DNA of 52,224 bases from Candidatus Omnitrophota bacterium (GCA_020052955.1 JAGVOB010000137.1:1-52224), one strand, 5' to 3'; positions 9,412 to 43,657 are shown, numbered from the stretch's first letter. Notes: generated by a model not told the origin, from the sequence alone. Made by a program: numbers and translations.

Positions 9412-9424
9412 AGAAAAGCCGGGT

Positions 9425-10587: not shown

Positions 10588-10657
10588 TTTGGTGTTACTT
10601 TAAAGGGACACCAATCGTATATAAAGTTTTCGTTTCAAAAGATAGCCGTTTACCAGT

Positions 10658-27217: not shown

Positions 27218-27332
27218 AAAAATCCTCCTTAAGAAGTGAAGGAGACAGCCAAGATAATAGTATCTCAACTGCCTCCTTTATGGTTAGAAGCGGCTACTTT
27301 GATGTGAAGTGTCTTGGAAGGATGGAAAAAGG

Positions 27333-27548: not shown

Positions 27549-27610
27549 CTGTTATCACCCCCTTTCAAATTAGGCGTTAGAGTTTTAATAAGATGTGATG
27601 ATGGACAGGA

Positions 27611-28294
27611 TTACCTTTGCCGGGGCAGTGCCTTATTCCGTTCAATGTCAAAATAAACCTCAGCGTACCTCACCGGTTTCTCTGCAACGATTGTGTAAAA
27701 AGCATTCAGCATTAAACAGGCAGCGGTTAAATTGGTGAAAATGATTTGCTCTGAGCCGGATAGTCGCGCCAGTTCCTCGCAGGAAAGTTCAGCAGGATTC
27801 TTATCCCTTGGCTGGGCAATTTCCGGATGAAATCTTTCTATGGGCGGATTTCTACTTCGACCGTTTTTCTTAATGTAAACTTGGATATTGCCGTCACTGA
27901 TTTCATTCCCGCCAGAAACAAGAACAACGTCCTGCAAACGCTGGCATCGTTCAGACACAATCTTTCTTGTAGCATGATTATCCACAGCCAAGAAAACTAC
28001 GCTCTTTTCACCAATAACCTCAACTACATTCTTCTCAGTCACAAACTCAGGAATTGGCACAATCGTAAGCGTATTAAATAACGACTTGAGATAGACTGCC
28101 TGCGCCTCTGCCTTGTTTTTGGTTTCTTCCAAAGCAGAGATATTCTGCCTGACAAAGTTTTCCCTACCGTATCTATCTCCATCCACCAAGATTACCTTCT
28201 TGCAATGCTGTGTAAAGTTAAGGTATCGACACAGCACCAATGCCAGGAACGAACCAATACCACCCAGCCCAATCACGACTATTTTTCCAATCAT
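27611..28294 (-). CDS. ThiF/E1-like adenylyltransferase
   Basis: Rossmann loop VVIGLGGIGSFLA and ILVDGDRYGRENFVRQ (D-x-D...N-x-x-R-Q). There is an ATGA overlap with the JAB gene. Confidence 0.75.
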   Translation of the reverse strand: MIGKIVVIGLGGIGSFLALVLCRYLNFTQHCKKVILVDGDRYGRENFVRQNISALEETKNKAEAQAVYLKSLFNTLTIVPIPEFVTEKNVVEVIGEKSVVFLAVDNHATRKIVSERCQRLQDVVLVSGGNEISDGNIQVYIKKNGRSRNPPIERFHPEIAQPRDKNPAELSCEELARLSGSEQIIFTNLTAACLMLNAFYTIVAEKPVRYAEVYFDIERNKALPRQR

Positions 28295-29133
28295 AGTTTA
28301 ATCTCCTTTCTTTGATTGCCAAAAAGCCGTTGATTTACAACATCTTTCTCCTTGCTGTAATCAAAAAAATCACAAGGGCTTCCTGGTTCTTTAATATCCT
28401 CCTGAATGCAGACATCCTCATGAGAGCAACAAAAGCACTCATCATCCAATGGTACATTTCCCTTGTCATCTTCTGGCTTTTTGTCAGTTTCTGGCTTTCC
28501 CAATACATCTTCCCTCTCACCAAAAGGCTCTTGGAGTGGCTTTACCTTTTTGAGCCATTCCTGATTAACCATCCTAATAGGCTCATTAAGACCCTCAATA
28601 ACGCTTTCAGGCTCTAATTCAGCCCTCTTTCCGTTAATTACCACGTAACAGGCTAATTCAGGCTTAACCTCGTCAAATTTGCTCACTATAAGGTGCAGTC
28701 CGTCAAAGTTTAGCTCGTCCTGATGGTCTGTCCCAGAGGCAAATACCCCAAAGCCCGGGTGAGAATGAACGCTACCCACAACTCTCCTGTTTGTTTCGTT
28801 CTTATACTGTACCCTGGCGCCAGCCACTTCTTGCTCCGGGGCATACGCGGACCAGGTATCCTGCTCATAACATAGCAACACCATTGCTTCTGACTTGTAT
28901 TTCTGATACACGGCGTGGAAAAAGGCCAATACTTCCTTGATTAGTTCATAGGGTATCTTTTTGGCCTTTAACGCAAACGTTTCTTCCTGCTCAGGCAACG
29001 GAAGAGCGTCAATCTTGACACAGGCATCAAACAACTCATTCTTCTTAAGGATATAAAATCCTTCCTTAGCCACAATATAAGCATAGGGCTCATTTCCCGG
29101 GATTGGCTGCCCGGCAAAGTACATCTTTATCAT
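28291..29133 (-). CDS. JAB/MPN (JAMM) metallopeptidase, PRTRC-A/BilC-like
   Basis: Exact JAMM spacing HSHPGFGVFASGTD (H-x-H-x7-S-x2-D) with an upstream Glu (YKSEAMVLL). Strong SD GGAGGTG. Confidence 0.8.
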   Translation of the reverse strand: MIKMYFAGQPIPGNEPYAYIVAKEGFYILKKNELFDACVKIDALPLPEQEETFALKAKKIPYELIKEVLAFFHAVYQKYKSEAMVLLCYEQDTWSAYAPEQEVAGARVQYKNETNRRVVGSVHSHPGFGVFASGTDHQDELNFDGLHLIVSKFDEVKPELACYVVINGKRAELEPESVIEGLNEPIRMVNQEWLKKVKPLQEPFGEREDVLGKPETDKKPEDDKGNVPLDDECFCCSHEDVCIQEDIKEPGSPCDFFDYSKEKDVVNQRLFGNQRKEIKL

Positions 29134-29383
29134 TTTTCACCTCCTCTAATGATTTTACGAGTTCTGCCAAATTGCCAGATTCTTCAATAGCCTCAGGCGT
29201 AATACACGTCTTTTTTTGCCGCAACACCCTGACTGCCTGCGTCAAAATCAGGTCTTCTAATTTTCCACTGAAATCCTCAATCTCCTCATCAGAACGTTCA
29301 ATGAAATCCTTCAAGACATCTTTAACAGAGTGAACACTATTGGCAATAGCAACCTTTCGTATGATTTGTTTAAATATTTTCAT
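29090..29383 (-). CDS. Hypothetical helical protein within the Ubl operon
   Basis: 97-aa acidic helical ORF. It overlaps the JAB gene start by 44 nt. Confidence 0.4.
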   Translation of the reverse strand: MKIFKQIIRKVAIANSVHSVKDVLKDFIERSDEEIEDFSGKLEDLILTQAVRVLRQKKTCITPEAIEESGNLAELVKSLEEVKNDKDVLCRAANPGK

Positions 29384-29386
29384 TCG

Positions 29387-30058
29387 CTACTCCTTTTCCA
29401 GAACGTTGTCAAGACACCGGCTAAGGCTCTGGTAGGGAAACCATTCCACAGAGCAAACATTTTCTAAGTTGAGCCGTTGCCAGGTGTCAAAACAATGCTC
29501 TTCCTGGTTTTGTTTAAGCAGGGCTATCTGTTTTGGTATCTTTTCCCTGAAAAACTGGTTTAAATCAGTGTTAAAGGTTGAGGCAAAAAAGTAACCAATC
29601 AAGCTATTAATCTTTTCCGGCGCCTCAGCCGTTACGCTATACCTGAAGTCGCCCAGACAGACAGCTGAATCCGGGCTGTGGAGATTCGGGATTGGCGGGG
29701 TGAACAGTTTATCTTCGCTACTGTTTAATCTCTGGTTTCTAAAATAAAAGAAACATTTTTCAAATGCATAGTTTTCAAAGAGTATCAGGAAGTAATGGTA
29801 CGGGAAGGCCAACGTATACTCTTTGGAATGCGCTCCATTGTGGGCATAAAGCACCTTTACCATTGTAGGTTCTTGTTCTATCAGATATGCCTTTTTGTAA
29901 TCCTTTGAGGCGTAGAAAATCACGCCTTTTGGCAGGATTGGTGTTCTTAAACCGCTTGACTGAATCAAGGCATTCTTAAAGTCAGTTAATTTTACCCGCC
30001 TGACTGTAGAAACTTCCTTTAATTCAACAATACCTTCACTGATTTCAATTATTTCCAT
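29387..30058 (-). CDS. Prokaryotic E2/UBC-like protein (start re-set; the ORF-track N-terminal extension is rejected)
   Basis: Starts MEIIEISEG behind AAGGAG-6nt. FTPPIPNLHSPDSAVCLGDF resembles the E2 (H)PN...x-C-L/W-G catalytic-Cys flap of Prok-E2 families. Confidence 0.55.
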   Translation of the reverse strand: MEIIEISEGIVELKEVSTVRRVKLTDFKNALIQSSGLRTPILPKGVIFYASKDYKKAYLIEQEPTMVKVLYAHNGAHSKEYTLAFPYHYFLILFENYAFEKCFFYFRNQRLNSSEDKLFTPPIPNLHSPDSAVCLGDFRYSVTAEAPEKINSLIGYFFASTFNTDLNQFFREKIPKQIALLKQNQEEHCFDTWQRLNLENVCSVEWFPYQSLSRCLDNVLEKE

Positions 30059-30080
30059 AAACAACTCCTTTCTAAAAATA

Positions 30081-30456
30081 GGGAAGGGGCACCTCGCTAG
30101 TCCGCAACCGTAAAGCCGCAAGCGAAGCCGAGTAACAGGTATCAAACGAGGCGAGCGGGCGGCTCGGAGGTGCGGTAAGCTAATTGTGTAATATATTGAT
30201 ATTCGGGACTGACGAAGCATCAGTCCGGCTTATTCCTTGAAACAAATGGTCAGGCCACGAGATGCTATTACTCTCGTCGTTATCGTGTTATCATCAGAAA
30301 AGATTATATCCTTTCGGAAATAATGGATTCTGAAAGGCGACAGACCTATAACCCTCGTTTCGTTTCTACAAAGCATTAACCCTCGGCCCAATTTTCATCG
30401 AGATGATGGTATGGACTTAGCAAATGGAACAAACCTAAAACCAAGGTGCCCTTCCC
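30081..30456 (-). ncRNA. Candidate retron msr-msd non-coding RNA bounded by a1/a2-like inverted repeats (strand assignment tentative)
   Basis: gggaaggggcacct (30081-30094) pairs with aggtgcccttccc (30444-30456), with one bulged C. Internal hairpins lie at 30206-30226, 30257-30277 and 30310-30337. A GC-rich imperfect long hairpin at 30102-30175 abuts the 30081 repeat. No credible ORF is present. Confidence 0.5.
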
Positions 30457-30464
30457 ATGATTAT

Positions 30465-31337
30465 TTAGCAGACTTTAACCAGATTGTTTTGTAAGGCTAA
30501 CAGGTTCTTTATCTCATTCACATCCTGAACAAGTCTTTTCCCTACATCAGGATTTATGCTTTTGATAAACGAGGCCTTGCCTTGCAATTTTGCCATATTA
30601 AAGGCGGTGTTTTCCCCTTTGATTAGTTTTGTTTTGATATTATGCAACTCTGCCCTGAATTTCCTTTTCTCTTTACGAAGAATATTTGGTGTTTTATTCA
30701 CCACCACGCCAGTTACAACTTGTCTATTGCCGTTTCTCATCACAAGAGTCTTTGCCTTGTTAATCTTAAAGCCGGTTTCGCACACGAATTTTTCAACAAT
30801 AGGCAGAATCATGTTCAGTTTGGTGTCCCTCGAAGAGAAAATCATATCGTCAGCGTATCTTGTGTAAGCGGTATTCCTCATGGAATCTGTCCATCTCTTA
30901 GCCAGTCCTGCCAGGCGATAATCCAGTTTCTTCAACACCATATTCGATAAGAAAGGGCTGGTAGGTGCTCCCTGAGGCAGATATGCGTTAACCCCATTGT
31001 TAAGAGTACAAATCTCAGCAATTCTTTGGGCATCCTCTGCGCTTATTCCCTCATTCTTCAGGGCATTAAGTACATGGTCCTTGGTTATTGAACCAAAGAA
31101 ATCCTTTATATCTGCTCTGATTACAACCCTCTTATTCGTATGAACCTGCGCATTAGTTGAGATGCTTCTATTTTTTATAAACGCGTGAGCGTATTTTGAA
31201 GGACCGATTCTCCTTGCCATTAACCATCTTAAGACAGATCTCTGTAATGCCTTTAACTTTGGTCTTGGTTCGGCTATCTCCCTAAATTCACCGTTACCCT
31301 TGGGAATCTTGCGAATAATGTAACTTCGCTTATCCAT
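30465..31337 (-). CDS. Retron-type reverse transcriptase
   Basis: 290 aa with IPKGNGEFREIAEP, SISTNAQVH (NAxxH), LPQGAPTSPFLSN, YADDMIFSS (YxDD) and QVVTGVVVN (VTG). It has no maturase or endonuclease domains. Confidence 0.85.
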   Translation of the reverse strand: MDKRSYIIRKIPKGNGEFREIAEPRPKLKALQRSVLRWLMARRIGPSKYAHAFIKNRSISTNAQVHTNKRVVIRADIKDFFGSITKDHVLNALKNEGISAEDAQRIAEICTLNNGVNAYLPQGAPTSPFLSNMVLKKLDYRLAGLAKRWTDSMRNTAYTRYADDMIFSSRDTKLNMILPIVEKFVCETGFKINKAKTLVMRNGNRQVVTGVVVNKTPNILRKEKRKFRAELHNIKTKLIKGENTAFNMAKLQGKASFIKSINPDVGKRLVQDVNEIKNLLALQNNLVKVC

Positions 31338-31381
31338 AAATCACCCCCTTTTTTTCTCTGTTTTATTGGTTAGTTCATCTT

Positions 31382-31693
31382 TTAATAATCCTCAGGCTTC
31401 ATGTAAGTAAATCCTTCTCCATTCCAGATAACCCAAATCTTGTCTTTCGAAATGACTCTAAGTTTCATATATGGTGTATCCTCCGAATCTGGTTGCCTGA
31501 GCAATTCCAATCCACGATTAACTAAATCCTTACGTTTCTGCTCATCTTCATAACCTTCCTTGAAAAGATTCGCAGTAATCACAACAGACTGATTTCCGAT
31601 AAAACCTACCGGAACTAAAATCCCATCCTCGATCGCTTGTTTCCTAGTGTAGGTGTATATGACTTCCGGCTCATCTTTATTATTCGTGTTCAT
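31382..31693 (-). CDS. Small conserved protein of the type seen in plasmid/ICE leading regions (start re-set to MNTNNK)
   Basis: IYTYTRKQAIEDGILVPVG...IWVIWNGEGFTYMKPEDY. I recall this Y-T/S-R-x-Q-A-I-E-D-G-x-L-V pattern from plasmid-borne hypothetical proteins, but the family name is not certain. SD AAGGAG-6nt. Confidence 0.5.
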   Translation of the reverse strand: MNTNNKDEPEVIYTYTRKQAIEDGILVPVGFIGNQSVVITANLFKEGYEDEQKRKDLVNRGLELLRQPDSEDTPYMKLRVISKDKIWVIWNGEGFTYMKPEDY

Positions 31694-32317
31694 ATTTCGC
31701 TCCTTTCTTAGCTTATTTCTCAATTATAGAAGTAAAAAGTTCTGACTATATAAACTGATAGATCCAATGGAATAACCCTAAAAAGGAAGAGATACCTTCC
31801 TGCTGTAGGGTGTTATGAGCAACATCTTAGGCGATAACCTTTAATGTTTTATTTGCTCGATTGTTGTTAGTGCTTGCGCACTTTTAAGTGATGGCATTAG
31901 AATGGGTTGTGGGTTTATATATTTTATTGTGATACAAAATATATATTATGGCTTGAACTTAGGAAATGATTGGACACTGACAGGGAATATTTTGGTGTCA
32001 GTATTGGCTTTTCAGGACAGTGGAAAAACATAAGAATACCTGAACTTAGCGTACCCTAGCTCCCTCTATCAAGAGAGGCCAGTGCCGGTCAAGAAACCGC
32101 TGTGGAAAAAAGGGGGAAAGCATGCTTGAAGTTGGTGTTTAAAGGTGGTGTCTAATATGGTACCTTAGGAACCACCCCTGTTTGCTCTAACCCCAAATCC
32201 TGCATATAATTGTATAGTTTAGGGTTCCCCTAATCGCTTCGCTCGGCTTCGCCTCGCTCAGCGCCCCCCCCTGTTTAGCGTAAAGTTTATAAAGTAGTGT
32301 GTCTTATAGTTTATCTT

Positions 32318-32551
32318 ATGCGTAAATCAAACCACTGGGATAAGGATATTTTAAGTCAATCGGCATTTGAGATAGAGATTAGCCCTTATTTACTGCGTCT
32401 TTTTACTGATTACGAAACCCATCTGCTTCGCAAGAAGTTAAGAGACGAGGTTCTTACTAAATCAGAGCAGGTTAAGTATAGTGCGAGGATAAAGAAAAAA
32501 ATATTGGCTATTATGAAGCTACAGAGTTTAGGACGACTTTTGGAAGAATAA
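32318..32551 (+). CDS. Hypothetical small protein (ATG start chosen over the track's GTG)
   Basis: 77 aa, helical and basic. It is the first gene of the plus-strand cluster. Confidence 0.35.
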   Translation: MRKSNHWDKDILSQSAFEIEISPYLLRLFTDYETHLLRKKLRDEVLTKSEQVKYSARIKKKILAIMKLQSLGRLLEE

Positions 32552-32644
32552 AAAATTTATTTGGTGTCATCAAAACTATCTTTTCTAACCTATATTTCTT
32601 AAAACCGAAACATTTATATAGTTCATACCCTTTAGACAGATAAC

Positions 32645-33040
32645 ATGGGAACAAGAAGCACAACAAAGATATACGATAATGGAAAGTTTCTGTTAGGAAT
32701 ATACAAGCAATTAGATGGATATCCAGAATATTGGGGTAAAGAATTAAAGAAATTTATAGATAATGGAGTATTTATAAATGGGATTAATGGCTCTAAAAAA
32801 GGAAATGAAAAGTTTATGTTTAATGGAATATCTGATTTCGCTTTAATGTTAGTAAAAGAATTTAAAGAAGGAACAGGAGAACTTTATGCTACAACTGAAG
32901 ATGACGAACAGGAATATAATTATATAATAGAATACGAGGATACTTTAAACGAGAACGGCATACATACTGAATATAAATTAACTTTAAGATGTAAAGAGAA
33001 CAATAATTTTAATTATTCTTGGGAAGGGAAACTAAAATGA
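32645..33040 (+). CDS. Hypothetical protein
   Basis: 131-aa ORF in a visibly more AT-rich stretch. There is an ATGA overlap with the next gene. Confidence 0.45.
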   Translation: MGTRSTTKIYDNGKFLLGIYKQLDGYPEYWGKELKKFIDNGVFINGINGSKKGNEKFMFNGISDFALMLVKEFKEGTGELYATTEDDEQEYNYIIEYEDTLNENGIHTEYKLTLRCKENNNFNYSWEGKLK

Positions 33041-33327
33041 AATATTGTAAAAAACATAAAGAGTTTTATCCAGCGATAAGTAAATGCTCTTGGTGTGAGG
33101 CAAATAAACTTGTAATGATAGACAACATAAATAGATATAAAAACAAATATTGCGAATGCACTAAATCACATTTTAAAATAACAGACGAGGGAGTAGCACA
33201 TAAAGGAGTTTTATTTTTAAGATTTGAGAACGAGAACGAAAAATTAAACTTATTGAATATGGGGGATAAAGAAATGTATGAATTTCTTAACTACAAATGG
33301 AATTTATATATGTCTTTAAATGATTAA
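33037..33327 (+). CDS. Hypothetical Cys-rich (zinc-binding?) protein
   Basis: MKYCKKHKEFYPAISKCSWCE...YCECTKSH. ATG re-set; overlaps both neighbours. Confidence 0.45.
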   Translation: MKYCKKHKEFYPAISKCSWCEANKLVMIDNINRYKNKYCECTKSHFKITDEGVAHKGVLFLRFENENEKLNLLNMGDKEMYEFLNYKWNLYMSLND

Positions 33328-33520
33328 AGTGAGACATATAGCAGAACGATATTTTGAGTTGGAAGAATGCCTAAATTGTAAATCCGAGAAGTTCAAAGCA
33401 ATCGTGACATTACCTACGATATATTATAAAGATGGAGATGAATATTGGACTGATAAAAATATTGATTACGAAGATGTAAAAGTTTTTTGTTCTAAATGTA
33501 ATTTGAGGGTTGAGGAATAA
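33320..33520 (+). CDS. Small zinc-ribbon protein
   Basis: CLNCKSEKF...CSKCNL (two CxxC pairs). Confidence 0.45.
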   Translation: MIKVRHIAERYFELEECLNCKSEKFKAIVTLPTIYYKDGDEYWTDKNIDYEDVKVFCSKCNLRVEE

Positions 33521-33607
33521 AATGAACCACGAAATGTGTAATTACGTTCTCATAAATGACAAGTGCCTGAATAGTTGTAAGCAAGCAAGGTTTTTCGAGG
33601 TGTTAAG

Positions 33608-35725
33608 ATGGACATAAACGCCCTGCGAGTGTTCAACTCACTCTACGATTTGGGAATAACCGAGAACGAGTTCAAAGAGGTTGAAAACGAACAAGAACAC
33701 ACAGAAAGGACAGGGCTTTCTATCAATTTAGTTAAAAAGGGCAAGATTATAGGAGTAAGCCACGACGAGAAACATCAGGTTGTAATCAAAGAAACAAAAT
33801 GCAGTATTAAACCCGCACCGAATAGCCGAGTTCTTTTTAAAACCCTGATAACTTTTGTGGAACTCCCAAAGGAAGTGTATGTTCTCCACCAGATAGCACA
33901 ATACAGGGCTTTGGATACCGACATAAAGTATATTGCGAATAATTTAGAGGAACTCAAAGACAGGATTTGCGACAGGTTTATTGATGAGTATCCTAAAGAA
34001 TTAGGCAGTATCTATGATGAGGCGTATGACGATTTTGACGAAAGAGAAAAAAACAAGATATTAAAGGGAAAGGTTGCAGAGGAACAACTAAAGGCACTTT
34101 TTTGGTTGTTTGACGAGGACTATCATACATTCGAGCCGACAGAAGCGAGGGAAAATATAGCGAAAATCGTCAAGGTATTCTCCCGCAACAACAGAAGGTT
34201 AGCCATAATCCAAACCAACGCAAATTGGAAGAAGCAAAGAGGCGGATTTTTCAAGGCAAGACGGACAGAACAAATAAAGAGAACGACATTCAAAATAATA
34301 ACATTCACGCCACGAGATAGGCAATACAATTATGTCTGCCCAAACAGAGAGGTTTATATTAGAGAGTATGGCGGAAACTCTGATATTTGGCTTGATGAAG
34401 ATTTAAGCGGAAAAATAACCGCCACAGAATTGGGAGTGCTGTCGAAACGATTAAAAGAAGGATTTGTGTTTCTAACTGCTGACGAGTATAACAACCAGAA
34501 ATCAGGGATAAGAATTGAATTGATGAGTGCCAAGCGAGAGGAACAAGAGCAACAGGCAAGGCATACTTTGGTTAAGTCCATTCAAAAGCAGTTTGGTAAG
34601 GGGAAAGTAACAAGGCAGGGCATAACCTTCACCAAGAACAGCGTAAGTTACGAAAGAATTATTTTAAAGGGCAGAATGATAGGCGAGTATCTTTGCCAAC
34701 AGAGTATAATCTTACAAGAACGTCCTGACTTCAACAAAATCTTTGAGGGGTATGTTGATTATCTTTTAAATTATGAAATCAGCCAAGACATCTATGGAAA
34801 TTCCTTGATTAAAGGGTGTCGGTTTACGGGTAAAGAGATAATAGAGATAGGAAAGATAAAAGTAATTCTCGAGGAAAGAAAAAATATCCTGTTTATCAAT
34901 AACCACAGGATACGCAAAGAGGACATAGGAACGACGATAAAAAGAGCAATCAATTACAATAGCCAAGAGCAATACAACGAGTTTGTTTCTGATACGAGCA
35001 AAGTAAATCTTGCTTTCCAAAAAATTCTGACGCAAGGCGGGGTTAGTTTCAAGTTAAAGATAGACAAGACAAATGATAATTGCCTGATGACAGAAAAAGA
35101 CGAGGCAAATATACTTCTGTCAATCCCGATAGTGAGAAAAGATAACAAGAACTACGCCCAGATTGACGGACAGGAATACAGAATTAGGGACACAACCGCC
35201 CTGCTCGATTTAGGAAAAGATATTGAAAGACACCGACTACAAGGTGGTTATTTGCAAAGGACAATCAAACTGCTGTATCGGGCGATTGAGGGAATAACTC
35301 ACAAGGAAATAGGCGAATTAATCAGAAATGGTAAGACAGAACACGAAAAAATGATGACGAGAATTAAACAAGAACAGGAAGCCAAACTGAAACGAAGCGA
35401 GGAATTTCTTGCTCACGCCGTAAAACTCACTCACGCAACGAGGGTTAAGAATGGTTATTTTGTGAAAGGATTAAACTGCATTACCTATTATGTCGGTGAT
35501 GATTTGGGAGTATGGACAATCAAAGGTGGGAAGCAGGAAAAATACCTCTGCATAATTGACATAAACAGCGAGAGAGAAGACAAGGCAGGGAAAAACGATT
35601 GTATCGCCAAGAGGTTATTGGCGTTGTCAAAAGACAGAGTGGTGGCAAAAGAAATTTATGAACAAGGCGACAAAATGGATAGTTGGTGGAACGAAATCCA
35701 AGAACCTTGTAGGGTGGTAGCATAG
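33608..35725 (+). CDS. Large hypothetical protein, first gene of the coupled 705aa-E1-Ubl-89aa-ATPase string
   Basis: 705-aa ORF with no motif recognised by eye. Its stop is immediately followed by the E1 ATG. Confidence 0.55.
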   Translation: MDINALRVFNSLYDLGITENEFKEVENEQEHTERTGLSINLVKKGKIIGVSHDEKHQVVIKETKCSIKPAPNSRVLFKTLITFVELPKEVYVLHQIAQYRALDTDIKYIANNLEELKDRICDRFIDEYPKELGSIYDEAYDDFDEREKNKILKGKVAEEQLKALFWLFDEDYHTFEPTEARENIAKIVKVFSRNNRRLAIIQTNANWKKQRGGFFKARRTEQIKRTTFKIITFTPRDRQYNYVCPNREVYIREYGGNSDIWLDEDLSGKITATELGVLSKRLKEGFVFLTADEYNNQKSGIRIELMSAKREEQEQQARHTLVKSIQKQFGKGKVTRQGITFTKNSVSYERIILKGRMIGEYLCQQSIILQERPDFNKIFEGYVDYLLNYEISQDIYGNSLIKGCRFTGKEIIEIGKIKVILEERKNILFINNHRIRKEDIGTTIKRAINYNSQEQYNEFVSDTSKVNLAFQKILTQGGVSFKLKIDKTNDNCLMTEKDEANILLSIPIVRKDNKNYAQIDGQEYRIRDTTALLDLGKDIERHRLQGGYLQRTIKLLYRAIEGITHKEIGELIRNGKTEHEKMMTRIKQEQEAKLKRSEEFLAHAVKLTHATRVKNGYFVKGLNCITYYVGDDLGVWTIKGGKQEKYLCIIDINSEREDKAGKNDCIAKRLLALSKDRVVAKEIYEQGDKMDSWWNEIQEPCRVVA

Positions 35726-36301
35726 ATGAAAATCTTACAGATAGGTTGCGGTGGAATTGGAAGTTATCTTATTTCCGAGATAACGGAGTGCTTTGAGCAA
35801 GAGCAGATAAACGCTTTCACAGATATATCCATAGCCGATAGCGATATGATTGAAATGGAACAATTAAGGTATCAGAACTTCAAGTCAAACGAAATCGGAA
35901 TGAACAAAGCAAAGGCATTAGGTAAAAGATTTGATGTCAAGGCAATAATGAAAAGAGTTGAGAAAGAAAACCAAATTAAAGATTATGACATCATTATCCT
36001 ATGTGTTGATAACGAAAAAACAAGGGAGATGGTAATAAGATACTGCCACAAGAACGACAAGGAGTTTCTTGATTTGAGGGCAACAGGCAGAAGAATATTT
36101 GCTATGCCCAAAACAACCCTTGAGGGCAACTTAAAGTTTGTGGATAGCAGGGATTGGAAAGAATATAGTTGCCAAGACGAAATGGATTTAGAAAAAGGAC
36201 TAATCCAGAAAGGCAACAAGATAGTGGCGTTGATAGGCGTTCAAATGCTACTTAATCTGTTGAGAGGACACAATAATAGAATAATAAACGAGGTAATCTA
36301 A
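35726..36301 (+). CDS. Short ThiF/E1-like adenylyltransferase (second copy in the window)
   Basis: ILQIGCGGIGSYLISE Rossmann loop; ISIADSDMIEMEQLRYQNF (D-x-D...L-x-x-Q). Only 191 aa. Confidence 0.7.
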   Translation: MKILQIGCGGIGSYLISEITECFEQEQINAFTDISIADSDMIEMEQLRYQNFKSNEIGMNKAKALGKRFDVKAIMKRVEKENQIKDYDIIILCVDNEKTREMVIRYCHKNDKEFLDLRATGRRIFAMPKTTLEGNLKFVDSRDWKEYSCQDEMDLEKGLIQKGNKIVALIGVQMLLNLLRGHNNRIINEVI

Positions 36302-36302
36302 A

Positions 36303-36581
36303 ATGAGGACAATAAAAATGTTTGTGGAAAGCCCGAATGGACACGACACGATAGAAGTGCCTGAAAACAAAGTCCAAGAGGAAGTGGAAAAGCAACTGAA
36401 AGACGATAAATGGGTTACGATAGAAAATGAGCAAGGCACAGAACTCCTGACAGAAAAGGACATTCCCGCTACCAAGACAATAAATGAAACAGGAGTGGAG
36501 AAAACCGACGAGGAAAAGTGGGCGGAGAAATTTGAAAATGTCAAAAGCGTAACAGCAACGAACAAGGTGAAGGGTGGATAA
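36303..36581 (+). CDS. Ubiquitin-like protein ending in an exposed C-terminal Gly-Gly
   Basis: 92 aa ending ...TATNKVKGG-stop. It starts 1 nt after the E1 stop. Confidence 0.6.
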   Translation: MRTIKMFVESPNGHDTIEVPENKVQEEVEKQLKDDKWVTIENEQGTELLTEKDIPATKTINETGVEKTDEEKWAEKFENVKSVTATNKVKGG

Positions 36582-36582
36582 A

Positions 36583-36852
36583 ATGAAACTTACCGAACTG
36601 ATAAAGGAACTGCACGATAAGAAAACAGGGGTTTTCATTAATGGTATGGGTTTGGGGAAAATTACCGAGATAGAAAGCGATTTCATCAGTTTTGAAGTCG
36701 TCAGAAAAGAGGAAAACAAGAAGGGAACAACGCTGAAAAAAGAACTAACGCACATTCCTATTGACAAGATAGAAACCATCTCGGAAGGGGAAAAGGAACT
36801 GCCAAAGAGCAACGAAGACGCAAAGATAGAGGACGCACTCGGGGGGATATAA
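36583..36852 (+). CDS. Small protein ending ...ALGGI (possible second Ubl-like or adaptor)
   Basis: The ATG at 36583 lies 1 nt after the Ubl stop (the track's GTG start at 36574 is rejected). The C-terminus is LGGI-stop. Confidence 0.4.
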   Translation: MKLTELIKELHDKKTGVFINGMGLGKITEIESDFISFEVVRKEENKKGTTLKKELTHIPIDKIETISEGEKELPKSNEDAKIEDALGGI

Positions 36853-38073
36853 ATGCTAACCAAAGACGAGGAACAACAACTAACCAAACTTGTTATCAAG
36901 GCAAAAGAAAAATGCAAAAACGAGTATGGCGTAGAAATCAAAAAACCAATTCAGATAGATACAAGCAAATCATTTGAGCAAAATAAAGTGTTAATCGTTC
37001 AGGCAATCAAAGATGAAAAAGATTTGCAGTTAAAAGACAAGCCAAAGACGACACCTTCGGCAATTTCGGAACGCAAGAAGCAATCGGCGTTGGAACAGGC
37101 AAAAAAGAACGAGGAGTTACAGCGTATGAAGGCAGAGGAACAAAAACTTGTTGCCGAATGGAAAGCCACGCCACCCCAAGATGTCCAAATACCTGAATTT
37201 GAAACCGCCAAGCATTTAATCCTTGCTACTGCGAAAGGGGACGGCAACGCTACTCTCATTACAGGCGAGGGCGGAATAGGTAAGACATTCTTGGCTATCA
37301 ACACCATCAAGGCGGTTACGAAGGATTTTGAGTTCTTTAATGGATACACTACGCCTCTTTCCTTCTATAAATTCCTCTACGGACACAGGGACAAGCTAAT
37401 TCTTCTTGATGATGTGGAAGGAATATTTAATGACGAGAAGGGAATGGCTTTGTTGAAAGGGGCTTTATGGGACGCTGATGGAAAGAGAATAATCAACTAT
37501 GCCTCAACCAGCGACAAGGCAGAAGGATTACCGAGTATGTTTGAGTTTAAAGGCAAATTAATAATGCTCTGCAACAAAGTCCCCAGAGAAAACGATATTA
37601 GTGTAAGTGCTATGATAAGCAGAACTATCAGTTACGAACTTTCATTTAGCCATTTGCAGAAAAAGAGGATAATGTATGAAATCCTTGATAAAAAACAAGG
37701 GCTTACAGATGAACAGAAAATATTGGCAAAGCAACTGATAGACAAACACACGAACCTTATCACCAAACACTTTAATTTCAGAACCCTTGAAAGATTACTC
37801 GTATTTATCCGCTATAATTCTGTTCTTGCAGAACAGCTATTTACATCAACCATCAAGCAAGACGAGGACGAAACGATAGTGTGGGAACTAATGAACTCGC
37901 AGAAAGGGATTAGCGAACAAATAGCTGTTTTTCACCAACTGACAGGCAAGTGTCGCAGGACATTCTACAACATTAAGAGAGGATTGCAGAAGCAAATGGA
38001 AGCAGACAGGAAAAGTGCAAAAGTGCAACCAAAGGAAGATGTTGCACTTGCACAAAATGAGGGTGGGCAGTAA
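36853..38073 (+). CDS. P-loop (AAA-like) ATPase
   Basis: Walker A LITGEGGIGKTFLA; Walker B KLILLDDVEG. The N-terminal ~120 aa are charged and coiled. Confidence 0.7.
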   Translation: MLTKDEEQQLTKLVIKAKEKCKNEYGVEIKKPIQIDTSKSFEQNKVLIVQAIKDEKDLQLKDKPKTTPSAISERKKQSALEQAKKNEELQRMKAEEQKLVAEWKATPPQDVQIPEFETAKHLILATAKGDGNATLITGEGGIGKTFLAINTIKAVTKDFEFFNGYTTPLSFYKFLYGHRDKLILLDDVEGIFNDEKGMALLKGALWDADGKRIINYASTSDKAEGLPSMFEFKGKLIMLCNKVPRENDISVSAMISRTISYELSFSHLQKKRIMYEILDKKQGLTDEQKILAKQLIDKHTNLITKHFNFRTLERLLVFIRYNSVLAEQLFTSTIKQDEDETIVWELMNSQKGISEQIAVFHQLTGKCRRTFYNIKRGLQKQMEADRKSAKVQPKEDVALAQNEGGQ

Positions 38074-38120
38074 CAATAACAGCAAACAACACCAATTTGT
38101 TCTAAAAAGCCGACGAAAAG

Positions 38121-38693
38121 TTAAATCCGCCCTAATGCGAAGCGAATATTTCTGATTACTGCCAGATGAGTTTCAATAACGCTTTCGTAATTAGCCGCCA
38201 ACTCCAGAGCAGTTCGTGAGTTGACGCCATCAGGCAGGTTTCTTGAGAACCGAGCCAGATACTGCTCCATAAGTGCTACCCTGTCGTCAAATGACAGGAA
38301 ATTGCAGTAATAACGGAGTTGGGCTTCGATATAAAACCGCTCATCTTCCTTCTTGAATGCTTCAGCAAGCAGATTGAGAATAGTAATAATTCCGCCTCTT
38401 AACCCCGTCACGGCTATTTGATATGCCCCTTGAACTCCCCCCAAACTCTGAAAGGCAGAATCTAATATCCTCATCCCTTCGCTGTTAGCAGCATACGAAG
38501 GTATGTCCCCCATCCCTGTCGACCTTCTATGGTAAATCACATAGTCCTCAACCAAACGCATAAATACGGGATATGAAGAAACGGTCAAAGAGGATACTTT
38601 ATACCGTTCCCTTGCCAGGTCGTGTCTTTGCGTAACATTTTCCGTAATGGTTTGTTCGTCCAAAGCCATTAAAAGACCCTGTAAATCAGCCAT
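38121..38693 (-). CDS. Hypothetical helical protein, last gene of the eight-gene operon
   Basis: 190-aa ORF, 14 nt downstream of the 804-aa ATPase. Confidence 0.45.
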   Translation of the reverse strand: MADLQGLLMALDEQTITENVTQRHDLARERYKVSSLTVSSYPVFMRLVEDYVIYHRRSTGMGDIPSYAANSEGMRILDSAFQSLGGVQGAYQIAVTGLRGGIITILNLLAEAFKKEDERFYIEAQLRYYCNFLSFDDRVALMEQYLARFSRNLPDGVNSRTALELAANYESVIETHLAVIRNIRFALGRI

Positions 38694-38707
38694 ATCAATC
38701 TCCTTTC

Positions 38708-41122
38708 TTATACTTCGTCGTATTTTATTCCATTCATCTTTATCTTATGAATAGATGACTTTCTTAATTTAAGTTTTTCAGCAGGCACATAATAGAGTTT
38801 CCGAGAACGCTCGCGGATGGCTTTCTCAATTTGCGGATCCGGTGACGGCGGAGGGTATATGGTGCGGAAACTAAAGGCGCGATTCTCAAAAAGCGCGAAA
38901 GCCTCACCGACATCCTGTTGCAAGAAGGCGTCCGGCTCAATTGACTTGCCGAACTCATTATATACTGATTGGACATCCTGCCAGGCTATTCCAAAAGTAA
39001 TCAGAGATCCCATATTGCTTAACGCAGCGGTTACGCCCGGGTGCATTTGGTCAAATTGCTGGAAACTGAGGGTAAGACGTATTTTAAACTTCCTTAATTC
39101 TCTAATGGAATCCTCAAGCGAGGCATTGGCATACCGCGCCATTTCGTCAATGTAAACATAAACCTCTCTGCGTTGATCGGGCGGTTGTGAGATTCTTGCC
39201 AGACCAAGATGGTATATCTGGCTCAAAAATATTGAGCCGAAAACATTTACGCAATCACCTCCGACAAGACCAGCCGGGGCGTAAATCAGGATGATGGAAG
39301 GTTTCCTGTTAAGATGTTCCTCGAGTTTAAATTTGCCTTTAACTTGGCTGAACATCCGGCCAAGCACCCGATGACCGAGCAAACGGTCCAGTTTGGCCAT
39401 AACACGGTCAATTGAGTCCTTAGCCAGAGACGGGAACTCATCAATCCAGAATTTTTCAGTTTCTGTGCCCTGAAGATATTCAAGGGCTGTTTCACGCAAC
39501 GCTTCTCCCTTAAGGGTTTTTGAAAGTAATGTCTTGCCGGATGCCAGAGTTAAGCCTGGAACAGATAAAACCGTCTGAATATCGAAGCGTAGCACCCGCT
39601 CTATGGAAGAACCCCAGCTCTTGGGGTCAAAGAGCCGCTTGATGCTCAGTAGCATTTCATCGGTCAGGGCGTCAAAACGGTTTCGCGGATTTTCATTAAC
39701 CGGATTATAGCTGAAAATATGAGTTTCATCTGTCAGGTCAATCAGCACCGTATCATTAATTCTTGACTTAGGAATTCGGGGAAGCAGGTCATTAGTTAAG
39801 TCGCCGTGCGGTTCAATGACTATTACAGTGTGGCCTGCCGCAATGTCCGAGAGAATCATACTCAGTAGGAGATGGGATTTCCCTTTCCCGGTTTTTCCGA
39901 AAATAACCACGGGTAACTCTCTAACCCTTGTTGGTAAGATTAACGACTTATCAATGCTATTAATTCCGATCACAACCCCTGATTCTTTCGAATGCTGAAC
40001 CGGGAGGCTCCCACGATAGATTTCGCAGTGAAACAAAGGTGATTTTAAGGTCTCCGGGTCGGGAAAGTGAGAAAAGCCGGATAGTTCTTTTGAACATACT
40101 ATCATACCGGCCCGATAACACAATGACTCGATAAGCATCTCTTTTACGAGTTCCGCGTTTTTAAGTACATTTAGAAAGGCTTGTTTTGACAGGCTGACCA
40201 GAGGATATCCCCCAGCCATAAAGGGCTGAAGCGCTATTCCGAGACTGTTAAGAGCCGATGATAGACGAGATCCGGTTTTTACTTCAACTCCTATTCTTAT
40301 AATACAGGCAAACAGAGGTTGGTCAGGATTGGTTTTAAGACTATCGTTATGAAAAGGTATTGTTTCTTTTTCAGGAATGCCCACCGTCCTTATCGCCTTT
40401 ACCATAGTCCTGATGTGCTGAATATTGGCTTTCCAATCATTCCTAACGGGCTGGAAAATGACCTGATAAAATCCTTGTTCTCCTTTCTCAATCTGGGATA
40501 GAGCGGTATAGACAGGAATCAGAAGCGAACGGTCTTTAGATGAGAAAACAGTAAAGTCACTCCAATATGGGCTATTTGGGTAATATTCGCGGAAATCCCA
40601 GTGCTGACCAGAAAACCACGGAACTTCGCCTTTGACGTTTGTTTTTATCTCCAATGGATTACCAGAGTGTCTTTGAAGCCATGCAGAAGGAAAATGTGAT
40701 TTCAGGACCGTCGTAATAACTTCCGACAATTCTTTATCATAGGTAAGGGAATGTGTGATACACTGGGAATTCCCCTGGATGGTTAAGATAATGGGACTTT
40801 TTATTCCGGAGAGGCTCTTAATCACGCCTTCAAAACTTGACCAGTGGGGTTGCTGTTCCGGCTTGAACCATATTTGAACGGTCTCAGGCGAACAATTAAC
40901 CACCGCAGGAACTATGGTATTAGGAGTCATCTTAATTGTTGGCTCTAAGAAATTCGGCTCGCGAAATGGAGAAAACGCCGGTTCTAACTCGACCGGATAC
41001 GGGTAAATAGTTGGATCACGGCTCTTCACACTTTCTATCATGAGCGCATCTTCTGCGGTTAAGGAAATCCCTTTACTAATCATGTCCTGAATTTTCGGGT
41101 TTAAACGAGACATAATAATCAC
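38708..41122 (-). CDS. FtsK/HerA/TraD-superfamily P-loop ATPase with a ~380-aa unknown N-terminal region
   Basis: Walker A VIFGKTGKGKSHLLLS; Walker B VYVYIDEMARY. There is a 4-nt overlap with the upstream wHTH gene. Confidence 0.7.
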   Translation of the reverse strand: MIIMSRLNPKIQDMISKGISLTAEDALMIESVKSRDPTIYPYPVELEPAFSPFREPNFLEPTIKMTPNTIVPAVVNCSPETVQIWFKPEQQPHWSSFEGVIKSLSGIKSPIILTIQGNSQCITHSLTYDKELSEVITTVLKSHFPSAWLQRHSGNPLEIKTNVKGEVPWFSGQHWDFREYYPNSPYWSDFTVFSSKDRSLLIPVYTALSQIEKGEQGFYQVIFQPVRNDWKANIQHIRTMVKAIRTVGIPEKETIPFHNDSLKTNPDQPLFACIIRIGVEVKTGSRLSSALNSLGIALQPFMAGGYPLVSLSKQAFLNVLKNAELVKEMLIESLCYRAGMIVCSKELSGFSHFPDPETLKSPLFHCEIYRGSLPVQHSKESGVVIGINSIDKSLILPTRVRELPVVIFGKTGKGKSHLLLSMILSDIAAGHTVIVIEPHGDLTNDLLPRIPKSRINDTVLIDLTDETHIFSYNPVNENPRNRFDALTDEMLLSIKRLFDPKSWGSSIERVLRFDIQTVLSVPGLTLASGKTLLSKTLKGEALRETALEYLQGTETEKFWIDEFPSLAKDSIDRVMAKLDRLLGHRVLGRMFSQVKGKFKLEEHLNRKPSIILIYAPAGLVGGDCVNVFGSIFLSQIYHLGLARISQPPDQRREVYVYIDEMARYANASLEDSIRELRKFKIRLTLSFQQFDQMHPGVTAALSNMGSLITFGIAWQDVQSVYNEFGKSIEPDAFLQQDVGEAFALFENRAFSFRTIYPPPSPDPQIEKAIRERSRKLYYVPAEKLKLRKSSIHKIKMNGIKYDEV

Positions 41123-41985
41123 TCCTTTTTTTCATCTGTCTTAACAATAGCCCGATATTCTTCAGTTCCGGCCACCGTCCAGATAGGGGTCAGGATGGTT
41201 GAAGGATTAATCCTATCAAAAGTCGTTAACCAGAACATCGTTCCGAATTCTTTACATAATAATAACAGGTGTCTTAACCTGGTTTGTCCAGAGGTTACGA
41301 TCAATGTGCGGAAGCCATTGAAAGAAAAATCAAATTCCTTAGAATAACGCTGAAATCTTCCCCTCGCATAACCCGTATAAGCCAAAAGTTTGTTTTTGAG
41401 AGAGATTACGGACTCAGTGCCATTGTCTATCTCAAGAAAAAACAGCGCCTTCCGACCTGATGCGGGGTTTTTTATGGCAAAGACGGCGTCCGGAATAAAA
41501 CTAACTTCCCGGTAAGGAGAAACCGGTAAGGCCACACGATCGCTGATATATTTTTCATTGGCTTTAAGAATCTTATGGCGGCCTCTTCCGTATTCCGGGA
41601 TACACTCGAAGGAATATTTCTGTCCTAACCCGCAGATTAACGCAATGATAAAATCATTGATTTTGAAAAGGTGTCCAATTTTTACCGGATTACTGGGCGG
41701 GCGCATGATTAGTGGTTGTTCCTGAGGCAGCTGTAATAATGCCCTGATTTCTAGAGCCCGTTTCGGGTTGGGGTAATAGACTCTTTCTAACCTGCCCGCT
41801 TGTCCTATTATTGGTGGAGAAGAAAACCAGCTCAAATACCCCTGTCTAACCTTATTTCTCAACCATCGCTGGCAGGTTTTGCTGTTTTCAAACCCAAGTT
41901 CCTTAATTTGGGACGTAGTTAAAAACTTGTATTCAGCAAGGACACGCATGATTTTTACAAGACGTTCAGAAGTTTGCACGTTCAT
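41119..41985 (-). CDS. Replication-relaxation (Replic_Relax-like) winged-helix protein
   Basis: N-terminus ERLVKIMRVLAEYKFLTTSQIKELGFENSKTCQRWLRNKVRQGYL is typical of the family as I recall it. Pairing with an FtsK/TraD-like ATPase is also typical. Confidence 0.6.
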   Translation of the reverse strand: MNVQTSERLVKIMRVLAEYKFLTTSQIKELGFENSKTCQRWLRNKVRQGYLSWFSSPPIIGQAGRLERVYYPNPKRALEIRALLQLPQEQPLIMRPPSNPVKIGHLFKINDFIIALICGLGQKYSFECIPEYGRGRHKILKANEKYISDRVALPVSPYREVSFIPDAVFAIKNPASGRKALFFLEIDNGTESVISLKNKLLAYTGYARGRFQRYSKEFDFSFNGFRTLIVTSGQTRLRHLLLLCKEFGTMFWLTTFDRINPSTILTPIWTVAGTEEYRAIVKTDEKKE

Positions 41986-41990
41986 AAGTA

Positions 41991-43646: not shown

Positions 43647-43657
43647 ATCGGTACTCC

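Follow-up and report, generated by a model that had tools for sequence, protein, structure and literature searches.

We analysed a cluster of five ORFs between positions 33608 and 38073 on the plus strand of the window (the whole 52,224-nucleotide stretch of DNA). The genes follow one another with junctions of 0-1 nt, and an ORF check reproduced the five reading frames and the tight stop/start junctions that the original prediction had described (Table 1). The module span proposed there, 32318-38073, held for the five-gene part, but the start at 32318 did not, as it takes in small upstream genes that lie outside the module. For the 89-aa protein (p89), an in-frame GTG at 36574 offers an alternative start and a 92-aa product. 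The ATPase contains a Walker A motif (GEGGIGKT) and a Walker B motif (LILLDDVEG), as had been proposed.

Table 1. Position and reading of the genes at the locus.
Feature	Position	Strand	Remarks
84-aa protein	32297..32551	+	upstream of p705; possible accessory or regulator, weak linkage
p705, 705 aa	33608..35725	+	large, obligatory partner in the cassette; family uncharacterised, with several domains
Short ThiF/E1-type adenylating enzyme, 191 aa	35726..36301	+	0-nt gap after p705
Ubl, 92 aa	36303..36581	+	1-nt gap after E1; ends ...TATNKVKGG-stop
p89, 89 aa	36583..36852	+	ATG at 36583; 1-nt gap after Ubl
P-loop ATPase, 406 aa	36853..38073	+	0-nt gap after p89; accessory gene

The upstream zinc-ribbon genes had been counted with the module. 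In a sibling contig of 97% identity, 156 bp stand in place of the region that carries them (32648-33549), and they are a strain-specific insertion rather than a part of the module. The 84-aa upstream protein was conserved 5' of p705 in the sibling contig (locus L005, 96% identity) and in L009 (42%), was undetected in the remaining loci of the L001-L018 set, and had no family match.

The 191-aa protein was confirmed as a ThiF-like E1, with a Pfam ThiF (PF00899) score of 57.2 bits over residues 2-184 (cut-off 28.1), and both the GCGGIGS and the DSDMIEMEQLRYQ motifs were located in it. The best NCBIfam match was PRTRC_ThiF (TIGR03736), at 44.7 against a cut-off of 144.75. Scores against equivalog models of cofactor pathways were 40.7 against 275 and 15.9 against 377, and the UbaA equivalog model gave 20 bits for a cut-off of 450. 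The protein belongs to a subfamily of 776 members of ~190-209 aa each, whose profile, over its first ~120 residues, matched the solved E1s UBA2 (SUMO E1), Cap2, UBA5, UBA3, TcdA, MccB, ThiF and MoeB (1e-8 to 1e-4). Among sequences with solved structures, the best match to the single 191-aa protein was Cap2, and the best match to the subfamily profile was the SUMO E1, with Cap2 a close second.

Across the subfamily, the invariant residues were G7, G9, G10, S13, D38, D40, Q50, K61, D95, R100, D116, R118, C149, Q173, N177 and R180. The nucleotide-binding features were intact in 18 diverse members, in which GxGGxGS, the D38/D40 Asp pair, K61 and D95 (in CVDN) did not vary; we take D95 to be the equivalent of the Mg-binding Asp of MoeB, D130. 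In ThiF and MoeB, a C-terminal Zn/beta domain grips the Ubl, and the canonical Arg of NLxRQ contacts ATP. This Arg is replaced by Tyr or His in every subfamily member, and the C-terminal Zn-binding domain (two CxxC motifs) is missing from the subfamily, whose members end just past the post-SCQ helix. A separate catalytic-cysteine domain is also absent. Because the ATP-contacting Arg and the Zn/beta domain are missing, we treat the activity of this E1 as an assumption.

We predict that the 92-aa protein is a Ubl with a beta-grasp fold, made with an exposed, mature C-terminal Gly-Gly as in the original prediction. Its AF2 model (pLDDT 79.8, from an alignment of only 9 sequences) showed the order b1-b2-a1-b3-b4-(disordered loop)-a2-b5-tail, with strands at residues 3-10, 13-20, 36-41, 46-49 and 82-87 and helices at 21-33 and 69-75. 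Foldseek was consistent with the beta-grasp; its top matches, at a best E of 0.015, were mainly beta-grasp/Ubl domains, and the bacterial Ubl of a Ubl-DUB complex (8tyx_A) was one of them. Because these statistics are weak, the fold stands as a prediction. The tail K[ST][AVI]T[ACV]T[HNQ]K.KGG-stop was kept in all ten fully read orthologues, in which the linker varied from 0 to about 110 aa, and similar KGG tails occurred in most other close-family loci. The Ubl can carry internal insertions rich in Pro, Lys and Glu, of as many as about 110 aa. No Pfam family, ThiS and MoaD included, matched it.

The largest protein, p705, had no match in Pfam, NCBIfam, PHROG or PADLOC, and the suggestion that it is ParB or a PRTRC-D/E/F protein found no support in these searches. 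The family spans 600-770 aa. It includes 92 close homologues, again without a Pfam domain, and a profile search reached 523 clusters at E<=1e-3. The AF2 model (pLDDT 83.8) contained long coiled helices and helix-rich segments; at full length it had no PDB fold match at E<0.001, and in BFVD it matched three unnamed viral proteins at E of about 3e-7. Among 84 diverse p705-like proteins, Y627, C648, L673 and D676 were 100% conserved and R669 was 99% conserved, and no invariant Lys was present among positions conserved at 85% or more. In the model, Cys648 sits in a C-terminal alpha/beta domain, after a beta-meander and before helices. Similarity to E2/UBC was sought in p705 and gave an hhalign probability below 1% and empty PDB profile searches. 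Pfam/NCBIfam-type searches for a known sulfurtransferase motif in p705 were also negative.

The gene set recurred in dozens of independent contigs with 38-60% protein identity and mostly conserved order, and because of this recurrence the arrangement is, on comparative grounds, not a product of chance. Junctions in these loci were 0-1 nt or 4-nt overlaps, a pattern of translational coupling. The same short E1 adjoined a p705 relative in 47/47 non-redundant loci with enough flanking DNA, a count over loci that are not phylogenetically independent. When sampled from the E1 side, all three E1 relatives had a p705-like neighbour, a Ubl and a JAB, and in highly diverged p705 relatives (profile E of 1e-23 to 1e-54) the linkage to E1/Ubl persisted. 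By gene neighbourhood, the conserved core is p705, the short E1 and the GG protein, with p705 as the strictly co-inherited partner; together with p89, these make up four of the five genes, which by the same comparison form a conserved uncharacterised cassette. This role of p705 had been overlooked in the original prediction.

Hosts of the cassette were Methanoperedens plasmids (L001 is a locus of this type), DPANN archaea, an integrative element (L038) that has an ATPase, coupling-protein and relaxase backbone in common with the window, and uncultured viral contigs of up to 215 kb. In the IMG/VR viral contigs the cassette lay near recombinase, exonuclease, sigma-factor and polymerase genes, and the p705 neighbourhood included replication and transfer genes. 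Plasmid, integrative-element and viral loci thus bear out the connection with mobile elements and phages that had been suspected earlier. ThiG/ThiH, MoaE, rhodanese and desulfurase genes were sought within the window and none was found; likewise, ThiG, MoaE, rhodanese, desulfurase, PP-loop and SirA/TusA proteins were neither fused nor adjacent to the cassette in 12 Pfam-annotated loci. A ThiS/MoaD cofactor pathway with its partner enzymes, the reading that had been named as the refuting case, was therefore not what these loci contain. Because archaeal plasmids, integrative elements and large uncultured phages also carry it, the cassette is an independent mobile-element system, neither a vitamin pathway nor a satellite of the neighbouring operon.

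Searches with Pfam, NCBIfam, PHROG and PADLOC agreed with the original prediction that the cassette of the window has no recognisable E2 or JAB. A JAB peptidase was present in viral-branch relatives, which had been overlooked. It occurred in 9/9 loci whose Ubl has residues (1-2) after the GG and in 4/39 loci with a GG-ended Ubl (Fisher p = 4e-7, not corrected for phylogeny). JAB presence follows the Ubl C-terminus, which indicates that the GG end is the functional one. JAB, E1 and Ubl also co-occur in the sulfur-carrier pathways CysO/Mec+ and QbsE/QbsD, so the JAB alone does not prove protein conjugation.

p89 directly followed the Ubl in 29 loci and was missing from the JAB-containing viral branch; by this distribution it is confined to the archaeal-plasmid/ICE branch. 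Its profile matches were weak (SH3/KOW-like, E 0.13-0.67; MM0924 family, E 0.019), and p89 is probably a small SH3/Sm-like beta-barrel. The ATPase matched phrog_1250 (E 3e-25) and was about 27-28% identical to T4-like NrdC.10 and Bacteroides phage DAC16 proteins. It was present in only about 10/41 loci with enough sequence, L038 included, which argues against a core role for the ATPase and against its being the preferred target.

From these results we favour, at a probability of about 0.55, a self-contained cassette for Ubl activation and conjugation on mobile elements, with a core of three co-inherited proteins of which p705 is the obligatory third. The short E1 would bind the free Gly-Gly tail of the Ubl and adenylate its last glycine with ATP, a step suggested by the chemistry common to all ThiF/MoeB/E1 enzymes and by the conserved nucleotide- and Mg-binding residues. 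The activated Ubl would then pass to p705, with Cys648 as the likeliest acceptor through a thioester, and p705 would act as a non-canonical E2/E3-type transferase; alternatively, the reaction may proceed without an E2, as with archaeal SAMPs, and p705 may be its adaptor or first substrate. The Ubl could finally be placed on lysines of p705, or on host or element proteins tied to DNA replication or transfer, targets to which gene context in the plasmids, phages and integrative element points. In the phage relatives, the JAB metalloprotease would trim the residues past GG and would probably reverse the tagging. In the branch of the window, the need for a JAB may have been lost, and the 89-aa barrel protein, and sometimes the ATPase, may serve as accessories instead.

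It is possible, though doubtful, that the cassette is a sulfur carrier in which the E1 converts the GG protein to a thiocarboxylate and p705 is a new thiolation enzyme with Cys648 as a persulfide relay, the sulfur going into a nucleic acid, nucleotide or cofactor of use to the mobile element. An E1 and a GG-ended beta-grasp protein without an E2 form the classical ThiS/MoaD/TtuB arrangement, this E1 lacks the separate catalytic-cysteine domain, the cassette lies among DNA-metabolism genes of phages and plasmids, and C-terminally extended carriers with a JAB have a precedent in the CysO/Mec+ and QbsE/QbsD pathways. Operon types of this kind are listed in PMC1779556. However, the Pfam-annotated contexts contained none of the sulfur-pathway partners (rhodanese, cysteine desulfurase, SirA/TusA, PP-loop ATPase, ThiG or MoaE), the Ubl is not matched by Pfam ThiS/MoaD models and has long insertions atypical of sulfur carriers, and p705 shows no known sulfurtransferase motif. 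We consider it unlikely that p705 is not an enzyme and is instead the protein set aside for tagging, or a scaffold, as would be a replication or partition factor of the element whose activity or stability is controlled by SAMP-like self-tagging with the E1 alone. Archaeal SAMPs and UbaA are an established case of conjugation without an E2, and the coiled and helix-rich segments of p705, its replication and transfer neighbours and its lack of detectable E2 similarity would suit such a role, but invariant Cys, Tyr, Arg and Asp residues over more than 80 highly divergent members are unexpected for a mere substrate, and the positions with at least 85% conservation include no invariant Lys.

The original prediction also held that the module might borrow the E2 and JABs of a second operon (27611-30220), which encodes a 227-aa ThiF and a JAB. 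About 3.4 kb separates the two operons, in the sibling contig L005 as well as in the window, and they were described as facing each other; they are in fact back to back, divergently oriented. The two modules are distinct as had been stated, with E1s about 28% identical over 108 aa. They co-occurred only in the near-identical L005: by tblastn the opposite operon was next to the cassette in 0/17 other related loci (L001-L018), Methanoperedens plasmids included, and it was also absent from L038 despite the window-like backbone of that element. Since the opposite operon is missing from the related loci compared, the cassette is autonomous; relatives of the cassette also bring their own JAB, and cross-talk with the divergent operon is the most improbable of the readings. 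Very improbable, too, is a hijack in which the element-borne ThiF works on a Ubl of the host (SAMP, ThiS or ubiquitin) and has no relation to the neighbouring GG protein. Three papers on archaeal elements read their ThiF as acting on host Ubls, on Methanoperedens plasmids (PMC9674854), jumbo extrachromosomal elements (PMC13444090) and Asgard Nidhogg viruses (bioRxiv 10.1101/2021.07.29.454249), and an AlphaFold3 complex of an element ThiF with a host ThiS (ipTM 0.80) is reported in this literature. However, a cognate GG-ended beta-grasp protein follows the E1, through coupled junctions, in virtually every locus of this cassette, and its tail state correlates with JAB presence.

We compared the cassette with known systems. 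With PRTRC (TIGR03734-TIGR03742) it has in common a ThiF-family protein and small proteins on plasmids and integrative elements, but its E1 stays below the PRTRC_ThiF cut-off and the module has no ParB. Apart from TIGR03736, no PRTRC model (NCBIfam; proteins A-F, ParB) matched any of the nine proteins searched, and the sole, weak PRTRC_A match was to the JAB of the opposite operon. ThiS/ThiF and MoaD/MoeB have the same E1 fold and GG-ended beta-grasp carrier; in contrast, this cassette has no nearby partner enzymes and no ThiS/MoaD Pfam match, and its E1 falls far under the equivalog cut-offs and lacks the CxxC zinc site and canonical Arg. Features common with SAMP/UbaA and TtuB/TtuC are an E1 and a GG-ended beta-grasp protein without E2 or E3, archaeal occurrence, and the dual possibilities of conjugation or sulfur carriage. 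However, the E1 lacks the C-terminal domain and scores far below the UbaA model, and the cassette is plasmid- or phage-borne and always tied to p705, unlike chromosomal housekeeping systems.

Bil (BilABCD), Bub and type II CBASS Cap2/Cap3 are characterised descendants of bacterial Ubl operons. Operon types 6a-6e, which combine an E1, an E2-like protein, a JAB and a small Ubl on mobile elements, were described by Iyer, Burroughs and Aravind in 2006 (PMC1779556). The cassette resembles these systems in its rhodanese-less ThiF-type E1, small beta-grasp protein with C-terminal Gly, JAB in many relatives, sporadic spread on mobile DNA and fourth protein with a conserved cysteine. It differs in that this fourth component is 600-770 aa long without UBC/E2 similarity or a PDB fold match, the E1 is truncated to ~195 aa and unfused to E2 or JAB, and the cassette of the window has no JAB; in PADLOC, only the E1 matched, weakly, to E1-E2 models, and the other four proteins were unmatched. 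Unlike Bil, Bub and CBASS, which belong to bacterial defence islands, this cassette is hosted by phages, archaeal plasmids and an integrative element, and for this reason the mobile element itself is the likely beneficiary.

Five plus-strand open reading frames occupied positions 33608-38073 with junctions of only 0-1 nt, as the original prediction had described, and the sequence motifs quoted there were all present. The interpretation placed on this arrangement held in part only. The proposed ThiF-like E1 passed the Pfam ThiF model (57.2 bits against a cut-off of 28.1), the proposed Walker ATPase was a P-loop NTPase, and the suggestion that the 92-aa protein might adopt a beta-grasp agreed with its predicted strand order, with weak structural matches; the suggestion that the 705-aa protein might be a ParB or PRTRC-D/E/F protein was not borne out, as there were no matches. 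A Shine-Dalgarno-like GAGGTG lay immediately 5' of the first ATG of the cassette, and 47 nt separated the cassette end from a convergent minus-strand operon encoding a 190-aa protein, a TrwB/TraD-like coupling protein and a Replic_Relax protein. Scanning for promoters and terminators gave no excess over shuffled sequence, and no plasmid or phage DNA matched the region in blastn searches.

Genes of the cassette and selected features of the surrounding window
Feature	Position	Strand	Remarks
705-aa protein (p705)	33608-35725	+	ORF; first gene of the block
191-aa protein (E1)	35726-36301	+	ORF; 0 nt from previous gene
92-aa protein (Ubl)	36303-36581	+	ORF; 1 nt from previous gene
89-aa protein (p89)	36583 (ATG) to 36852	+	ORF; 1 nt from previous gene; GTG at 36574 gives 92 aa
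406-aa ATPase	36853-38073	+	ORF; 0 nt from previous gene
Type III restriction-modification pair	within 1-26000		methylase/Res
Beta_protein with M78/HTH protein	within 1-26000		
PLD nuclease, HerA-like ATPases	within 1-26000		
1588-aa protein	within 1-26000		no Pfam match
fn3/Ig-like proteins	within 1-26000		
RadC/JAB gene	26735-27268		just past the opposite operon
Retron-type reverse transcriptase, 290 aa	within 30465-31723	-	best PADLOC model RT_XIII, E 2e-81
Two integrases (within 1-26000)			
STAND and AAA ATPases			
Coupling-protein/relaxase block			

We compared the E1 with 18 diverse members of its subfamily, in which the GxGGxGS loop, D38/D40, K61, D95, R100, D116/R118, C149, Q173, N177 and R180 were invariant. 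D95 is the equivalent of MoeB D130, and C149, which lies in an SCQ motif, was judged the counterpart of ThiF C184, the 'PxCT' position. The Arg position of NLxRQ was Tyr or His. The protein ended short of the Zn/beta domain, which grips the carrier in ThiF and MoeB. Solved relatives (SUMO E1, Cap2, UBA5, UBA3, TcdA, MccB, ThiF and MoeB) were roughly equidistant (1e-8 to 1e-4). Judged from its sequence, the protein is a member of the E1 family with conserved predicted nucleotide and Mg residues.

Neither Pfam, NCBIfam nor PHROGs gave a credible match to the 705-, 92- or 89-aa protein, nor did PADLOC for the first two. The AF2 model of the Ubl (pLDDT 79.8) was ordered b1-b2-a1-b3-b4, a disordered loop, a2, b5 and a KVKGG tail, and so has its strands arranged as in ubiquitin. 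Its Foldseek matches were mostly beta-grasp domains (EAP, the bacterial Ubl of a Ubl-DUB complex, ubiquilin UBL, PB1 and FERM-F1), the best with an E-value of only 0.015. Conservation among orthologues covered the N-terminal half together with the ~20 C-terminal residues (W..KF..[IV]KS[AV]T[AC]T[HNQ]K.KGG), and 0 to ~110 low-complexity residues were inserted at the disordered loop.

The p705 family ranged from 600 to 770 aa. The AF2 model of p705 was multi-domain and of good confidence (pLDDT 83.8), and had no Foldseek match in PDB at E<0.001; in BFVD it matched three unnamed viral proteins (E ~3e-7). In 84 members drawn from close, distant and viral relatives, Y627, C648, L673 and D676 were conserved in 100% and R669 in 99%, all within the C-terminal domain. 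The model placed a long helix and a 4-5-strand meander before C648, which followed the meander directly, and helices after it, an order that may be reminiscent of UBC-type E2s. No sequence method supported E2 homology: PDB profile searches with the full-length protein and with the C-terminal domain were empty, and hhalign comparison with an alignment of four UBC sequences gave a negative result. Pfam searches with p705 itself, with 10 distant members and with 35 distant members identified no credible domain; the top match was DUF7737 (3 of 35 members, E = 0.0017).

Sub-threshold SH3/KOW-like similarity was seen for p89, and a test of p89 as an Sm/SH3 barrel likewise gave no match above threshold. 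The 406-aa ATPase matched phrog_1250 (E 3e-25), was ~27-28% identical to T4-like nrdC.10 (NrdC.10) proteins and had matches in more than 1,100 phage records. Some records label the nrdC.10 proteins 'thioredoxin' by mistake.

Co-inheritance was measured at related loci. Close homologues of p705 numbered 92, at 38-59% identity; all lacked Pfam domains, and they were labelled mostly Candidatus Methanoperedens (plasmid records included), Nanoarchaeota and Micrarchaeota, with a few bacterial MAG bins. A ~195-aa ThiF, a protein ending ...KGG-stop and a p89 homologue accompanied p705 in every related locus with enough sequence. After the metagenome scan, 47 non-redundant genes for p705 or p705-like proteins had 2.2 kb or more of flanking sequence, and a short E1 lay beside every one of them, a raw count over loci that lack phylogenetic independence. 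The E1 was detected downstream by HMM in 45 and by tblastn at one locus (L061), and at two loci (L058 and L060) it lay directly upstream. By the same raw counting p89 was present in 29 loci. Only ~10 of 41 loci carried an ATPase of the window type, which is therefore accessory.

The association extended well beyond close homologues. Searching 1.84 billion representatives with the p705 profile gave 523 clusters at E<=1e-3, with distant relatives aligning from about residue 150-230 through the C-terminus, and their contexts again included a short ThiF together with a small protein that has a GG tail. One such locus, L019, encoded a 62-aa protein ending ...EIQGG-stop and a NUDIX protein; the phage-like locus L020 encoded a Ubl ending ...LLGGVR-stop and a Prok-JAB. 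The short-E1 subfamily comprised 776 members, all of ~190-209 aa and with no annotation beyond 'ThiF family adenylyltransferase', and the three distant E1s sampled each had a JAB, a Ubl and a p705-like protein as neighbours. The cassette is a widespread Ubl cassette of mobile elements in which p705 is a new, obligatory partner, and we put the probability that E1, Ubl and p705 function together as a cognate trio at about 85%.

Several loci departed from the simple layout. A 90-kb contig (L036, Logan SRR12113425) carried two paralogous cassettes 2.3 kb apart beside a PCNA gene, one at 3756-6661 (605-aa protein, 66-aa protein, ThiF, 88-aa protein) and one at 9001-12820 (720-aa protein, 59-aa protein, ThiF, and 94-, 120- and 83-aa proteins), which suggests cassettes of differing specificity. 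In one branch an additional conserved protein of 59-81 aa, a further accessory component, lay between the p705-like gene and the E1 (L020 7325-7561, L108 4754-4999, L036 11160-11339), and those of L020 and L108 had the common motif ...LFNTLAN.D.ILVALNDK.... The 406,522-bp contig JGI1356J14229_10000009 held four identical cassette copies (L052-L055) spaced ~108.8 kb apart and very probably represents a circular element of ~109 kb that was assembled as a concatemer.

Viral cassettes were found on 15 IMG/VR contigs (<=215 kb), where the p705-like gene was accompanied by genes for a short ThiF, a Ubl and a protein with a JAMM motif. The viral Ubls ended in GG, GGN, GGC, GGQ, GGHK or GGTK and were encoded before or after the large gene. 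Neighbouring genes encoded a UvsX/RecA-like recombinase, an exonuclease, a sigma factor, a clamp-loader-like ATPase, a ribonucleotide reductase and a DNA polymerase, so these cassettes sit in a DNA-metabolism region and not in a structural module. The viral contigs were recovered with the distant-family alignment A5 only; the IMG/VR scan with the close-family p705 alignment found nothing, and tblastn of p705 and two viral p705-like proteins gave no match in GenBank phages. The p705 family is known only from uncultured sequences, and the cassette carriers were uncultured large phages, Methanoperedens plasmids, DPANN-associated elements and one integrative element.

A JAB accompanied all nine Ubls bearing residues after the GG and 4 of 39 Ubls ending in GG (Fisher p = 4e-7, from counts without phylogenetic independence), as would be expected if the Ubl reacts through its free GG end. 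No sulfur-pathway partners accompanied the cassette in the window or in the Pfam-annotated contexts of related loci, and curated models ruled out PRTRC, ThiS/MoaD and UbaA/SAMP identities. On balance we lean slightly towards protein conjugation over sulfur transfer as the output. The E1 would adenylate the Ubl glycine and the activated Ubl would be handed to p705, either as a thioester on C648 or with p705 as the adaptor or the substrate of a SAMP-like reaction that needs no E2. Targets would be tied to element replication or transfer, or to host defence, and in the phage branch the JAB would mature the Ubl and reverse tagging.

That p705 itself is a thioester-forming transferase is a tentative proposal, which we hold to be rather doubtful; if it were correct, p705 would be a new fold for Ubl conjugation. 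In a further reading, which we consider unlikely, the family would be a new, non-UBC class of Ubl-conjugating enzymes, E2 and E3 in one through C648, which phages, archaeal plasmids and integrative elements would combine with a minimal E1 and a Ubl of their own to modify proteins of the host or of the element, perhaps so as to neutralise host defence or to regulate replication and transfer. The prokaryotic Ubl systems Bil and CBASS type II were recently shown to be antiviral defences. Here prokaryotic Ubl chemistry appears on the opposite side of that conflict, and ubiquitin-like tagging, if this is what the cassette does, would arm mobile elements and not host immunity alone.

Genes throughout the window were of mobile-element and defence kinds. 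The opposite, divergent operon (27611-30220, minus strand) encoded a 277-aa protein, a 97-aa protein ending ...NPGK and not GG, a 280-aa JAB with a weak PRTRC_A match (E 1.6e-4) and a 227-aa ThiF, and resembled an E1/JAB/Ubl/E2-like operon type of Iyer et al. 2006 (PMC1779556). Upstream of the retron reverse transcriptase, a 113-aa gene had a weak DUF6573 match. A sibling contig (L005/L039, labelled Candidatus Paceibacterota) was collinear with window 27207-43725 at ~97% identity, with 156 unrelated bp in place of 32648-33549. This segment, an insertion, held three small overlapping AT-rich genes of 131, 102 and 66 aa; the 131-aa protein had a weak phrog_1987 match and the other two had CxxC...CxxC zinc-ribbon patterns.

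A 334-kb metagenomic contig (L038) carried all five cassette genes (p705, E1, Ubl, p89 and ATPase), and after them came the minus-strand block known from the window (here a 195-aa protein, coupling protein and Replic_Relax), with an integrase upstream and the ThiF/JAB operon absent. The cassette is therefore a backbone part of an integrative or transferable element, and only in this lineage does it adjoin the small genes, the retron and the opposite Ubl operon. The window showed no terminal overlap indicating circularity, and it contained no tRNAs and so has no taxonomic anchor. Cassette contigs L005/L039, L009, L013 and L017 were binned as Paceibacterota, Planctomycetota, Methylophilaceae and Ignavibacteria, labels that are unreliable as MAG-bin assignments, and most relatives were archaeal; the Methylophilaceae record and one Methanosarcinales record (L010) had neighbouring accession numbers. 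The mobile elements were likely mis-binned.

A full-text literature search found no description of the cassette (Burroughs et al. 2009, on the E1-like superfamily, lay outside its scope), and with ~776 short E1s and more than 500 large-partner clusters it is uncharacterised. Passages of three papers on archaeal elements (PMC9674854, PMC13444090, bioRxiv 10.1101/2021.07.29.454249) report ThiF only and propose that host Ubls are hijacked by it, and those passages mention no adjacent Ubl or large partner. As L036 has two cassettes, so the Asgard Nidhogg virus is reported in the last of these papers to have three ThiF copies. A Methanoperedens plasmid-type locus (L001) had RadC and UvrD neighbours as a passage of PMC9674854 describes for HMp plasmids. 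An adjacent cognate Ubl and an obligatory large partner would alter this 'orphan ThiF' reading for ThiFs of the cassette's subfamily, and they give a directly testable three-protein system. The closest known systems are the E1/E2-like/JAB/Ubl operons on mobile DNA (Iyer et al. 2006, PMC1779556) and the characterised members Bil, Bub and CBASS type II, which are alike in logic. The cassette differs from these systems in its fourth component, in its minimal unfused E1 and in its carriers, which are phages, archaeal plasmids and an integrative element.
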